Part shown: positions 41,667-45,621 of the stretch, piece after piece | Position numbering within the stretch: position 1 is the first letter of the stretch | How the letters are laid out: each line of letters opens with the position of its first letter | Assembly: GCA_043754515.1 (NCBI GenBank) | Contig: JAYUUO010000027.1 | Location: 1-58,634 of the forward strand | Direction of reading: 5' to 3' | DNA length: 58,634 bases | Source: Armatimonadota bacterium | GTDB taxonomy: Bacteria; Armatimonadota; Armatimonadia; Armatimonadales; Armatimonadaceae | Notes under the pieces: model-generated | Told to the model about the DNA's origin: nothing | Databases searched by the model: none | What the model saw: only the letters and a program-made list of their open reading frames with translations | Position numbers and translations under genes: made by a program

Positions 41667-41918
41667 TTAATGCGGGTGCGCGTGTCCGAACATCTCGGCG
41701 AGGGTCAAAATGCGATAAAACGCGAGCAACACCACGAGGATCAGGTAGCCGCGTAGCAATAGCAACGATATCCGGACGCTGGGCGTCAGCTTAATGGTAC
41801 CCAGACCCTCGGCACTCCGCTTCTTCTCCGGGGTGTCATCCAGGGGATGAACGACATACAGATCGTGATCGGTCGGGCTCATGCCGCTCAGCGTGTCCGT
41901 GGTCATTTGTTGAGTCAT
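41667..41918 (-). CDS. Small membrane protein accompanying the NRAMP-like transporter
   Basis: VVHPLDD.PE.K...LTPSVRISLLLLRGYL; AAGGA RBS; last gene of the operon. Confidence 0.8.
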   Translation of the reverse strand: MTQQMTTDTLSGMSPTDHDLYVVHPLDDTPEKKRSAEGLGTIKLTPSVRISLLLLRGYLILVVLLAFYRILTLAEMFGHAHPH

Positions 41919-41945: not shown

Positions 41946-43286
41946 TTAAGCCGACCCGCCGGGGATCAGGTTCGGCGCGATAACTTGCACCGCCAGGATG
42001 AGCGACAGCACGAACAGCACCGCGACTATCGTCCAGTTTACGACGTTGTTCCACGGCTTGTTGACGAACTCGTCGCCCAACAACTCGCGGTCGTTGAGCA
42101 GTAGTTGCAAAAAGATGATCGCCGACGGCAGAATTAACCCCGCCAGAACCTGTACTCCGATGATGATCAGTTGTAGCGGCGCACGCGGGATCAGCACGAC
42201 CGCCGCCGCCGCGAGTGTGCAACCGATGTAGGTCAGGTAAAACCCTTTCGCCTTCGCGAACGGCATTTGCAGGCTGTGCGGCCACTCCTTCACCTCCGCG
42301 TAAGCCCACGCCGAGGCCAGCGAGATGGCGGTCGTACCCAGAACGGCCGCGTTGATCATGAACAGTAACACCCCGGTGCGAACCCAGTAACCGACGATGG
42401 GGCCGAGAGCTTCCGCCATCTGCGCGGGGTCGGTGTAGTTGATGTGGTGTGTATACATAACGTTCGCCACGCAGATCATCGCGCCCGCCACGATGACCGT
42501 GAAGCACGATCCGATCAGGGTATCGAGGCGTGCGCTCCCCAGATCCTTGAACCGCAATTTCTTGTCGGCGACCGCGCTCTGCTGGAAGAACAGTTGCCAG
42601 GGTGCTATCGTCGTACCTACTATCGCCACGACGAGAAGGACGAGATCCGGCGTGATCCCCTTCGGCGGTAGGTTCGGGATAAATGTGTTCTTCAGCACCG
42701 GCATGAAACCGGCGTGGCAGGCCGCCGCCATGGCAATCCAGAACAGGTCGGCGATGCACAGGAAGATGGTGATCCGCTCCCAGCGCAGGTAACCCCCCGA
42801 AAGCACGAGCGCGATCAGAGCGACCGCCGCGACCGGCACGGCGACTACCGGGGGGATCCCCATCTTCGTCGTGGCAAGCGAAATCGCGGCGAACTCCGTG
42901 ACAAGCGTCAGGAAGTTGACCAGCAACAGGTCGAAAAGTGAGAAAAGGCCCCACCACTTGCCGAACCGCTTGAAAATGATGGCGGCGTGCCCTTGCCCGG
43001 TCGCTATACCCAGCCGCGCTACCATTTCCTGGACGAAGTAGCACACCGGCAATAGCAACAGCATGAGCCAGAGCAGATGCAACCCGTACTGCGCCCCCGC
43101 CTGCGTGTAGGTCGAGACCGCCCCCGCGTCATTATCCGCCTCCATCACGATCAGGCCCGGACCGATAATGAGCAGATGTGTGAGTAGCCTCTTCTGCCAC
43201 TGATTTTTCACCAAGATGCCCTTCGGCTTCGCGGCGTTGGTACCGACTATCTCTTTGTTGGTTTCTTGTCCCGTCGTTGTAATCAT
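41946..43286 (-). CDS. NRAMP-related divalent metal transporter, probably Mg2+ (NrmT-type)
   Basis: GPGLIVMEADNDAGAVSTY, QEMVARLG, GTTIAPWQLFFQQS; lacks the MntH DPGN and MPH motifs; under M-box control. Confidence 0.88.
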   Translation of the reverse strand: MITTTGQETNKEIVGTNAAKPKGILVKNQWQKRLLTHLLIIGPGLIVMEADNDAGAVSTYTQAGAQYGLHLLWLMLLLLPVCYFVQEMVARLGIATGQGHAAIIFKRFGKWWGLFSLFDLLLVNFLTLVTEFAAISLATTKMGIPPVVAVPVAAVALIALVLSGGYLRWERITIFLCIADLFWIAMAAACHAGFMPVLKNTFIPNLPPKGITPDLVLLVVAIVGTTIAPWQLFFQQSAVADKKLRFKDLGSARLDTLIGSCFTVIVAGAMICVANVMYTHHINYTDPAQMAEALGPIVGYWVRTGVLLFMINAAVLGTTAISLASAWAYAEVKEWPHSLQMPFAKAKGFYLTYIGCTLAAAAVVLIPRAPLQLIIIGVQVLAGLILPSAIIFLQLLLNDRELLGDEFVNKPWNNVVNWTIVAVLFVLSLILAVQVIAPNLIPGGSA

Positions 43287-43380: not shown

Positions 43381-44814
43381 CTAGAACTCGATGTGCGTAC
43401 GTAGCGAGATCACATCCACCGGCCCGCGATCTTTGTTATACGCGGGGTTCGTCAGCCTCTGGTAATCGAGCGACAGGCCGACCGTCGGGTTTAACTGAAA
43501 CGTGTAATAGCTCTCGAAAATCTGCTCGCGCCCGTAGTTCAGTCTGCCGTCGCCGATGATGAACCCGTAACCGCCTGCGGCGAGGTAGTCGCGGTGCGGC
43601 GATGACAGGCCGTTTGACACGAACGCAGTGGCGAACCGGTCTTTCGGGCGGTGCCATTGTGCCCCGGACAGTTGCCCGCCGAAGGAGACGTGGCTGTCTA
43701 TTTCCGTGAACGCGAACGAGTCGGTTTTGCCGTCGTCCGCCCCGAGACGCGCCCAAATTCCCGTCGCGCCGTCGTCGGCTAGTGCCTGCTCGATGTTGAT
43801 GCCGTAGCCGTACTTGATCGCGCCGACGTGTGCCGCCTTCGTGATGTCCGGGCGCGTTCCGCTCGCGGCCGATTGCGCGATGGCCTCGCGGTAGTCGCCC
43901 ATGTGCGCCATGTTGCGGAAGCCGAGTAGCCGGACAATGGTCGGTGCCTTCCCGCGAACCGCGTGGGGGTGCAGTTCGATTTCGAGCTGATCGCCCCGGT
44001 TGAACGCCAAATTGTTCGCGAGATCAATGCCGTTCGCGACGGTGGGCATCTGGAACGAGCCGAACCGTATGGCATGCGTCGGGGCGATCCACTCGGCGGC
44101 GACCCCTCGGCTGTAGCCGCGCGTGTCGGCGGCGTAGTCATACGCGCCGTTATTCAGGAGTGCCCAGTTCATGAACTGCGTCCGCGCGCTGTTCGCGTAG
44201 GAGGACACGTCGAACACGTCGTTCGTGCCGAGTTTGCCGCCGGTCAGCACGAGCCGGTGCGTCGGCTGCTTGCCGCCGACCTGGTGGATGCCGCCGCCGA
44301 TTACCTCCTCGCCCTTGCCGGTCGCGATCATGTAGCGCGCGAAATAACGGGCGAGATACGGCTCGCTGTTCAGGAGCGGGTTACGGATCACCTCGCCGTT
44401 CAGGAACCCCGCCGTGCCGAGCGAATTGCTGACGCCGAGGCCCGCGACCTCCTCCGGGTCAATGTAGATGTCCAAGTTCGGGCGGACGCGCACGCCCATA
44501 TAGAGCGTGAATGATTCGGAGACCTCGGTCTCGTCGCGGGAGATCAAGCTGAAGTCGCCGCTGTACGGACTGCGGAACTTGAGCAGGCTCTGCGAGATAA
44601 CGGTGGCCTGGCTGTTGAACTGGAAGCCGATGACGTTGGTCTTGTTCGCCAGTTTATCGGCGGGCGTGGTCGTGGTCTTCGTGGTGTCCGCTGGTGCCGG
44701 CTCCGCGCTCTTCTGCGCATAGGCGGCCGTACAGGCGAGGAGGTAGGTGCCTACAACAGCCGCGAAGGCGGCGTTGGACAGGATTGTGTGGGTTGAGTCG
44801 CGCATTGTTTTCAT
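43381..44814 (-). CDS. OprB/carbohydrate-porin-like outer-membrane beta-barrel
   Basis: Signal peptide; FMNW....GAYDYAADTRGY; GYGFIIGDGRLNYGREQIFE.YY; NPAYNKDRGPV; terminal F. Confidence 0.85.
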   Translation of the reverse strand: MKTMRDSTHTILSNAAFAAVVGTYLLACTAAYAQKSAEPAPADTTKTTTTPADKLANKTNVIGFQFNSQATVISQSLLKFRSPYSGDFSLISRDETEVSESFTLYMGVRVRPNLDIYIDPEEVAGLGVSNSLGTAGFLNGEVIRNPLLNSEPYLARYFARYMIATGKGEEVIGGGIHQVGGKQPTHRLVLTGGKLGTNDVFDVSSYANSARTQFMNWALLNNGAYDYAADTRGYSRGVAAEWIAPTHAIRFGSFQMPTVANGIDLANNLAFNRGDQLEIELHPHAVRGKAPTIVRLLGFRNMAHMGDYREAIAQSAASGTRPDITKAAHVGAIKYGYGINIEQALADDGATGIWARLGADDGKTDSFAFTEIDSHVSFGGQLSGAQWHRPKDRFATAFVSNGLSSPHRDYLAAGGYGFIIGDGRLNYGREQIFESYYTFQLNPTVGLSLDYQRLTNPAYNKDRGPVDVISLRTHIEF

Positions 44815-44975
44815 TTCTTCTTCCTTCTAACCGGTCATTAACGGGCGAATTCCTGGCTCATGTCGCTTGTTGCCACTCGGGAAAGGATGCGGCAGGCTCT
44901 GCCTGACATTGCTTCATCATCCTGACATAATGATGGTCGCGTCGTTCGGAGTGAAGGGGGGGCGGGGCGCGGCGT

Positions 44976-45032
44976 AAACAGAAACGCCCCGCTTCTTCAC
45001 GAAAGTTCGTTCTTCCGTGAGAAGGCGGGGCG
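44976..45032 (-). terminator. Second intrinsic terminator in the leader (attenuator)
   Basis: Minus strand: cgccccgc-cttc-tcacggaag...ctttcgtga-agaa-gcggggcg followed by tttctgttt. Confidence 0.65.
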
Positions 45033-45053
45033 CGGTTCGGGGAACCCTACGCT

Positions 45054-45185
45054 TTACAAAAGGCGCGGGGGCGGGAACATGGCGCTCGGCATCGTCACGG
45101 AAAGCCGCGCCCCCAGGGAAAAGGGAGACGCGACATATTCGGTTGTGATTTGTACGATGTGAAAATCGCTACTGTCTGCGTCCAT
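45054..45185 (-). CDS. Putative 43-aa leader peptide with a PPP motif
   Basis: GAAAGG 7 nt before the ATG; MDADSSDFHIVQITTEYVASPFSLGARLSVTMPSAMFPPPRLL*; below the ORF-track length cutoff. Confidence 0.6.
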   Translation of the reverse strand: MDADSSDFHIVQITTEYVASPFSLGARLSVTMPSAMFPPPRLL

Positions 45186-45244
45186 ATTGTTACCTTTCGT
45201 TTGCAAGCGGTCCGAAACGAAACGGGCAGGGCGGTTGATGCCTT

Positions 45245-45286
45245 AAAAAACAAAAAACCCTCTGCCCGGACATGCGGGAAAAGGGT
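45245..45286 (-). terminator. Riboswitch expression-platform terminator
   Basis: acccttttcccg-catgtc-cgggcagagggt plus tttttgtttttt; the 5' arm is complementary to the aptamer 3' tail ggggaaagcagggggtga (antiterminator). Confidence 0.85.
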
Positions 45287-45348
45287 GACACGCTGTGCAA
45301 AAGACAGCCGTGCTAAGGAGTGCTATCACGAATGATCTCACCCCCTGC

Positions 45349-45527
45349 TTTCCCCACTCGTTTGAGTTTCGGCACCGCGCACCGTAAGAGAAGAACGACG
45401 GATCGTCCTCCCAGCCACGTTAAGCAAACCCTTATTTCGGGAGTGCCTGTTATACCCATCGCGGACATCTCTGGATGTTGCAGGGCAGTGGCTTATGTGT
45501 TACGCGGGAACCTCACCTACCGAGGAA
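45349..45527 (-). promoter_or_regulatory. M-box (ykoK) Mg2+ riboswitch aptamer
   Basis: ctcggtaggtgaggttcc...gccactgccc...gatgggtataacagg...gaaataagg...ttaacgtggctgg...gtgccgaaactcaaacga follows the ykoK consensus order; upstream of a metal transporter operon. Confidence 0.93.
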
Positions 45528-45592
45528 CCTGAACTATTCGATTGATGGCCATTCGTTCGCCTACATTACCAGGCAAACTCCGGCACGGCGAG

Positions 45593-45621
45593 ATGGTACC
45601 ACCGCCTTTATACACTGTCAA
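45593..45621 (-). promoter_or_regulatory. Sigma70-type promoter for the M-box leader
   Basis: TTGACA-17 nt-TACCAT with extended TG. Confidence 0.8.

Follow-up and report, generated by a model that had tools for sequence, protein, structure and literature searches.

The window analysed in this study is a 58,634-nt contig of an Armatimonadota bacterium (JAYUUO010000027.1), and we focus here on the leader of an operon carried by its minus strand (Table 1). This leader comprises an M-box riboswitch with its terminator 1, then a short open reading frame (ORF) and a terminator 2, and it precedes genes for an OprB-family porin and a transporter of the Pfam Nramp family. An initial annotation, made from the sequence alone, had listed these elements in the same order, and all were recovered: the TTGACA-17-TACCAT promoter, the M-box, which was confirmed with the ykoK covariance model, a hairpin with U tract behind it together with a competing strand at the aptamer 3' end, GAAAGG and a 43-codon ORF with the expected end, a strong hairpin with U tract after this ORF, and the porin-NRAMP pair downstream.

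Table 1 Features of the leader and of the operon, with positions in the window
Feature	Position	Strand	Basis
Sigma-70-type promoter TTGACA-17-TACCAT, extended -10 (TG)	45593..45621	-	10/12 consensus matches
M-box (ykoK) Mg2+ aptamer, RF00380	45346..45531	-	123.2 bits, E 3.7e-27
Predicted antiterminator-1 strand (3' side of aptamer P1 and beyond)	45338..45355	-	complementary to 45288-45276
Intrinsic terminator 1, hairpin and U tract, riboswitch expression platform	45245..45286	-	folding
Shine-Dalgarno-like GAAAGG, 7 nt before ATG	45193..45198	-	sequence
43-codon leader ORF, divergent family member	45054..45185	-	reading frame, profile matches
Codons 1-7, three Asp (residues 2-7) among small residues	45165..45185	-	sole part matching the family profile
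Weak hairpin at the position of the family Pro-Pro hairpin A, no Pro codons	45152..45172	-	folding
Hairpin over codons 18-27, holding the G-rich segment 45114-45105	45104..45134	-	folding
Predicted antiterminator-2 strand TTTCCGTGA (codons 28-31)	45095..45103	-	complementary to 45020-45012
Pro-Pro-Pro, codons 38-40, not conserved, beyond the switch point	45066..45074	-	folding, relatives
Intrinsic terminator 2, family hairpin C and U tract	44976..45033	-	folding, arm alignment
OprB-family porin	43381..44814	-	E 3.6e-28
NRAMP-related Mg2+ transporter (NrmT/NRMT-like)	41946..43286	-	Pfam Nramp; structure match
83-aa ORF, no Pfam or NCBIfam family, likely third operon gene	41667..41918	-	position

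Several relatives of the porin are named high-affinity Mn2+ porin by their source. For the NRAMP-related protein, the closest solved structure is that of EleNRMT (7QIA, E 2.5e-55, versus 2e-14 for MntH). Its helix 6 carries the TxxA/T motif in place of A/CxxM and is identical to 7QIA there, and its helix 1 reads DxxA where NRMTs have DxxG replacing DxxN, the Asn being lost with an Ala instead. The operon likely serves magnesium uptake. ORFs like the 83-aa ORF adjoin NRMT in the relatives L054 and L227. Neither MgtE nor CorA was found in the 92.7% complete genome, and a shut NRMT operon would therefore be costly; the MgtA-like ATPase of this genome is encoded inside another operon, directly upstream of which no leader of this type was found. 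Both EF-P and Rho are encoded. A terminator lying within 12 nt of a stop codon is a criterion for coupled transcription and translation, and 9 of the 90 crudely predicted terminators of the genome lie that close, which by this criterion suggests coupling. The groups with runaway transcription named in the available part of PMC13323073 do not include Armatimonadota.

In the promoter scan, 4 sites were found versus 0.8 expected, and from the spacing transcription is predicted to start near 45586. The M-box match covers model positions 1-169, lies above the gathering threshold of 44 and is the sole gathering-level Rfam match in the window. The 5' arm of terminator 1 can, in the folding model, be captured by the strand at the 3' end of the aptamer, in a duplex of -24.2 kcal/mol; the terminator 1 hairpin is present in both equilibrium folds, and aptamer-driven switching was not reproduced by folding. 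A simple terminator scan missed terminator 1 and terminator 2 alike. In described M-boxes, high Mg2+ folds the aptamer and the terminator stops most transcripts (PMC4072509).

The hairpin of terminator 2 (45033-44984, -34.0 kcal/mol) is followed by TTTCTGTTT; the region folds with a z-score of -3.8, none of 200 shuffles being as good, and terminator 2 is unchanged in three strain contigs (runs X6, X7 and X8). The lower part of its 5' arm is repeated at 44973-44963 (minus strand), directly after the U tract, where it opens a C-rich stretch. The ORF that lies between the two terminators is presumably translated, and its GAAAGG also precedes the leader ORFs of the relatives L048, L049 and L225. 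A 219-nt contig of a second study (run X5, depth 3.4) is identical to 45024-45242 without a gap, and thus the 43-codon frame does not result from an assembly error. We also considered a frameshift or assembly error joining the start to a 13-codon frame at 45136-45095 (minus strand), and rejected it because the X5 contig is gapless and this frame has no Shine-Dalgarno (SD) sequence. The 13-codon frame ends exactly on the predicted antiterminator strand, like the ORFs of seven short relatives, and is possibly the trace of an ancestral frame. The leader is single-copy in its genome, and searches found neither a protein homolog of the ORF nor a close relative of this long variant. Three RNA runs (X18-X20) contained aptamer-like pieces only.

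Since none of the 60 nearest genomes has an M-box, related leaders were gathered through relatives of the NRMT and the porin, and through M-box searches of 68 and 151 genomes (partly overlapping sets). Behind 19 of the 23 non-window M-box loci from the two genome-wide searches lies a second module, and the metagenome locus L205 adds one (20 of 24), with a leader ORF of 17-30 codons in these 20; the module is missing at L178, L180, L181 and L192. At L178 the M-box stands before an ABC-type permease (PF00528), an unusual target. L211 (1769-3283) and L212 (1-1505) are also without module; in each, an NRMT gene is preceded by three M-box aptamers, of which two stand in close tandem.

Twelve module copies are found without M-box (L047-L049, L148, L154, L198, L201 and L223-L227), as judged by an Rfam run for seven, and for the other five by the lack of room for an aptamer or by a genome without M-box match. 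Eight of these copies (L047-L049, L198, L201 and L224-L226) follow a metal-sensitive repressor gene of the CsoR/RcnR type, assigned to PF02583 in two cases and by visible likeness in the others. A C-tract/G-tract palindrome, which we take to be operator-like, lies at the promoter in L198 and L233. In L148 (870-1270) the promoter stands directly before terminator 1, the aptamer is gone, and the ORF module and the porin are intact; in L227 (1501-1697, minus strand) the module copy sits inside the operon, between the NRMT block and the porin gene. In 12 module loci compared with Rfam up to E 5, the module matched no entry; the Rfam MgtL/mgtA Mg sensor leader was matched neither there nor in the window, which leaves the functional analogy with MgtL untouched.

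Two further candidates were dropped: L052 (E 0.0024), which is cut by a contig end and yielded no start codon, and L064 (E 0.24), which has no family-like start or hairpin A and came from a porin scan of named genomes (80 distant loci, mostly of other phyla, 18 of which were searched with R1, the model of the leader family). A search with R1 of 151 genomes of the phylum of L107, another phylum, returned a single weak match, L233 (1501-1671, minus strand, E 0.02); it is a typical module with a U-tract terminator, behind which lie only a 62-aa ORF and, in convergent orientation, a galactose operon.

The module has a constant order: an SD sequence, an ORF of 17-37 codons, a hairpin A over Pro-Pro, a strand near the ORF end and a long hairpin C past the stop codon. 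Terminator 1 ends 40-81 nt before the ORF start; a script recognised it in 18 of 21 module loci and visual inspection in two more (L059 and L060), and L196 has none. Where the genes after the module can be named, they always encode NRMT, OprB, MgtC, MgtE-N or CorA, and they are often preceded by a small ORF of no family. Two small protein families, with no Pfam match in the five members tested, recur as the first gene after the module, one in L040-L046 and L233, the other in L048, L049, L153, L191 and L225.

Of the 33 leaders (window included), 26 have Asp or Glu as residue 2 and 29 have Pro-Pro within the first 14 codons, typically at codons 7-10, versus 7% and 3%, respectively, of 1204 long ORFs of the window genome; the leaders counted include kin, which are not independent, and span more than a dozen genera. 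Early Pro-Pro is missing in the window, L047, L154 and L198, and the enrichment of an acidic residue 2 is seen irrespective of Pro. The hairpin-A motif lies 18, 21 or 24 nt from the start codon, thus in frame, in 31 of 32 relatives, and the 3' arm of the hairpin is spread over the three frames (16, 10 and 1 of 27 matched). Together with the ORF length of 17-37 codons, this suggests that the frame counts as far as the prolines and that the peptide sequence beyond them does not. The initial annotation had proposed to look for a conserved MDADS..PPP ORF: the acidic early start is indeed a family trait, but Pro-Pro in the last eight residues occurs in one of the 32 relatives only; the C-terminal Pro-Pro-Pro is not conserved and is probably not the sensor. 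Some relatives start differently: the leader ORFs of L053, L054 (two copies) and L206 begin with TTG, those of L054 and L206 encode Glu-Pro-Pro at codons 11-14, and that of L053 appears frameshifted. In L197, L199, L200 and L208, the leader ORF upstream of NRMT counts 45 codons, has an acidic residue 2 and lacks early Pro-Pro; its distal part pairs with a hairpin by which the following SD sequence is otherwise masked, the same logic applied to translation.

Behind hairpin C, C outnumbers G by a factor of at least 1.5 in 27 of 32 leaders, a raw count with no background control, and a U tract follows in three of 32 (the window, L040 and L225). From this C-rich tail in place of a U tract, Rho is the probable output in most relatives. 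Default alifold on a 23-row alignment returned no structure; on a 19-row alignment the paired share was 77.8% versus 72.2 +/- 1.0, with 28 compensatory cells versus 14.8, both counts leaning towards the structure, which was derived from the same alignment.

The window shares with this family the SD sequence, the acidic residue 2, an AGT codon at codons 4-7 and the distance of 40-80 nt after terminator 1. Its start region is the best R1 match in 28.6 kb (E 0.0044), and genome-wide no other site matches the 5' profile better (E 0.66); the whole-module R1 model misses the window in genome searches, the full family HMM gives E 31, and the hairpin-C profile finds no match. The 5' arms of hairpin C of L048, L191 and L201 align on the arm of terminator 2 better than all but 0, 2 and 2 of 300 shuffles, the alignment being not significant for most of the 32 relatives. 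The window ORF has no Pro before codon 21, and with no early Pro-Pro we call it a divergent relative of the family rather than a typical member. In the host's own family, the M-box was found in 0 of 31, the NRMT in 0 of 23 and the porin in 0 of 23 genomes, and the cassette is closest to that of G379, a genome of another family (NRMT 81%, aptamer 87%), which suggests transfer and remodelling.

Throughout the family, the sequence that follows hairpin A pairs, locus by locus, with the upper part of the 5' arm of hairpin C. In 15 leaders, one per genus or contig, the cognate pairing reaches -19.7 versus -12.8 +/- 0.9 kcal/mol for permuted partners (0 of 100000 permutations), and in 20 of 23 leaders the pairing is stronger than in 95% of the shuffles of the same leader. 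A held-out set of 10 leaders gave -17.4 versus -14.4 +/- 0.85 (p 0.0009), three of the 10 being individually significant. These tests left out L050, L053-L056, L058, L197, L199, L200, L203, L206, L208 (divergent), and L233. In the relatives, a ribosome footprint up to about codon 12 spares the helix and later positions lose it, which places the Pro-Pro just before the switch point. At equilibrium, most full-length folds favour hairpin C, most members showing no switch, and the switch must therefore be kinetic, that is co-transcriptional, if it operates.

For the window, the transcript was folded up to the loop of terminator 2 with ribosome footprints at successive codons. In the naked RNA, 45103-45095 is predicted to form 8.8 of nine possible pairs with 45020-45012. 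This antiterminator helix is present with the ribosome at codons 2-14, 21 and 23, dips at codons 17-19 and is absent at codons 25-34; with all RNA behind the ribosome covered, it is off from codon 25 onward. It re-forms with a lone ribosome on P38-P40 (6.0-8.3 pairs) or on the last codon (8.8 pairs), so that in the model the off state needs a timely ribosome on codons 25-36, or a queue. None of 200 shuffles reaches the real value under a 36-nt search rule, and 71 of 1000 do under a 60-nt rule. The helix amounts to -8.7 kcal/mol versus -34 for the terminator, only two of the other 32 leaders having a weaker one, and in full-length equilibrium folds terminator 2 wins at every ribosome position. 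Mutually exclusive predicted stems overlap the ORF, with a weaker signal for the window alone.

We lean towards reading the second tier of the window as an MgtL-type attenuator in series with the M-box, and at the level of the family a translation-coupled switch is strongly favoured. The serial tiers, competing RNA structures and MgtL-like logic proposed in the initial annotation are supported at the family level. At high Mg2+, the aptamer would fold and terminator 1 would stop most transcripts, those escaping meeting the second tier. Ribosomes past about codon 24 would then cover 45103-45095 and let terminator 2 form; an early stall or drop-off would free this strand for 45020-45012, and the porin-NRMT operon would be transcribed. 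The acidic, proline-containing start of MgtL aborts translation more often at low Mg2+ (bioRxiv 2021.02.02.429294; PMC11552253), so by analogy low Mg2+ is the likely trigger of early stalling or abortion here. The sensor would be acidic residue 2 with Pro-Pro at codons 7-10 in the relatives, and the Asp-rich start alone in the window, where codons 1-7 are the candidate Mg2+-sensitive stretch; relatives with a C-rich tail would likely use Rho. The cell would thus likely check magnesium twice, directly and through the passage of ribosomes over the first codons, in an AND-type logic.

Among other explanations, the window copy may have decayed or been rebuilt after transfer within a working family, leaving terminator 2 as a nearly fixed damper that responds little to ribosomes. 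The loss of the Pro-Pro hairpin, the weak antiterminator, the very strong terminator and the suggested acquisition speak for this; but the SD sequence, the start region, the open frame and a 9-bp complement at the family position are all kept, terminator 2 is unchanged in the three strain contigs, and shutting the NRMT operon would be costly. On this balance we consider decay unlikely.

The same RNA mechanics might instead answer another input, such as shortage of proline or EF-P, or ribosome stress caused by another metal, the two tiers then reading different signals. Salmonella mgtP responds to proline, most M-box-less copies follow the metal-sensitive repressor gene, and one tested NrmT homolog without riboswitch moved Mn2+ better. 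This is likewise an unlikely reading, since the genes downstream represent five types of Mg2+ uptake, the enrichment of acidic residue 2 does not depend on Pro, the window ORF is Pro-free over its first 20 codons, and the mgtL and corL leaders respond to Mg2+.

The initial annotation had favoured a ribosome stalled at the C-terminal Pro-Pro-Pro, which would free the G-rich segment, or the neighbouring strand, to break terminator 2. The Pro-Pro-Pro is there, the antiterminator helix re-forms around a lone ribosome on it, Salmonella mgtP uses consecutive Pro codons, and the G-rich segment with its two complements exists, the isolated duplex being strong (-17.9, rank 1 of 44 non-cognate pairs). 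However, 43 of 200 shuffles pair equally well, and in the folds, where the segment was set as 45115-45106, it forms no more than 2.5 pairs with the terminator arm for all ribosome positions tested, and none with the Pro codons in naked RNA. Moreover, the fold hardly changes between a ribosome on the Pro-Pro-Pro and a ribosome on the last codon, so in the model stalling there cannot by itself tell low from high Mg2+. In the family, the corresponding pairing of the hairpin-A 3' arm with the post-stop stretch is weak (-11.1 versus -9.9 +/- 0.46). With folding, shuffles and relatives all against it, this mechanism is quite improbable. Shuffling the last 13 codons yields Pro-Pro-Pro in 3.8% of cases; its origin as a relic of the hairpin-C arm was not supported, the best of 32 alignments being reached by 10 of 300 shuffles and the others being weaker. 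Speculatively, Pro-Pro-Pro could at most slow the leading ribosome like a brake, so that the next one would wait about ten codons behind it, over the antiterminator strand, favouring termination. Finally, a small trans-acting protein, as proposed for the mycobacterial M-box ORF Rv1805A (PMC12810186), would fit the good SD sequences but is most improbable, as the peptide after the prolines shifts among three frames, its length varies and the window ORF has no protein homolog found.

Returning to an Mg2+-responsive attenuator behind the M-box, this arrangement would put in series, on one transcript, two known RNA-level Mg2+ sensors that have been described from different bacteria, the M-box aptamer and the MgtL-type leader ORF. 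RNA folding, Pro codons and destabilisation of the ribosome by acidic residues are all under discussion as the way in which MgtL senses Mg2+ (PMC11552253). With about 30 natural variants, some of which lack Pro-Pro, with an intrinsic or probably Rho-dependent output, and with the aptamer as internal Mg2+ control, the family makes this question directly testable in reporters; the window would be a natural test of whether an acidic start without prolines suffices. We also put forward, tentatively, a broader idea: an undescribed ribosome-based Mg2+ attenuator could be the constant core of the Mg2+-uptake leaders of the whole phylum, in which first tiers (M-box or CsoR/RcnR-type repressor) and outputs (intrinsic terminator, Rho or hidden SD) are interchangeable, the window being an AND gate of free and ribosome-felt Mg2+.

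In agreement with the initial annotation, which knew of no description of this tandem, our literature search, with most subscription journals outside its coverage, found neither a leader-ORF attenuator behind an M-box that has an intrinsic terminator nor any account of Mg2+ riboswitches in Armatimonadota. The closest known systems are MgtL/mgtA and CorL/corA of Salmonella and E. coli, in which a short ORF with early acidic and Pro codons and alternative stems precedes an Mg2+-uptake gene (PMC11552253, PMC12360218, bioRxiv 2021.02.02.429294). The family has both kinds of early codon, full translation is predicted to turn the gene off as in those leaders, and the C-rich tail of many members fits Rho. 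They differ, as far as these sources describe them, in their first tier, which is PhoPQ or none there and an M-box or a metal-sensitive repressor gene here, and the window copy has an intrinsic terminator and no early Pro, its three Asp lying within residues 2-7. The mgtM/mgtP leader of Salmonella mgtCBR likewise places two serial switches, with consecutive Pro codons, before Mg2+-related genes, but both of its tiers are ORFs (sensing ATP and proline), with no intrinsic terminators in the account available, whereas here the first tier is a riboswitch with a terminator (PMC3641672). A described mgtE motif is confined to Thioalkalivibrio (PMC11109978). In mycobacteria, an M-box is followed by a small translated ORF before Mg2+-related genes at pe20/rv1805A (PMC12810186), and by a uORF at M. 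abscessus mgtE (PMC4974804). There, as these sources present it, the aptamer controls the ribosome-binding site of the uORF, which is itself the regulated gene, by hiding its SD sequence, and Rho acts; in the present leader an intrinsic terminator follows the aptamer, and the ORF is part of another, separable switch also found without M-box. M-box NrmT operons, lastly, share the M-box and terminator before an NRAMP-related Mg2+ transporter (PMC4072509, PMC8806188), but the available parts of these reports mention no leader ORF or second terminator, and the window operon is headed by an OprB porin.
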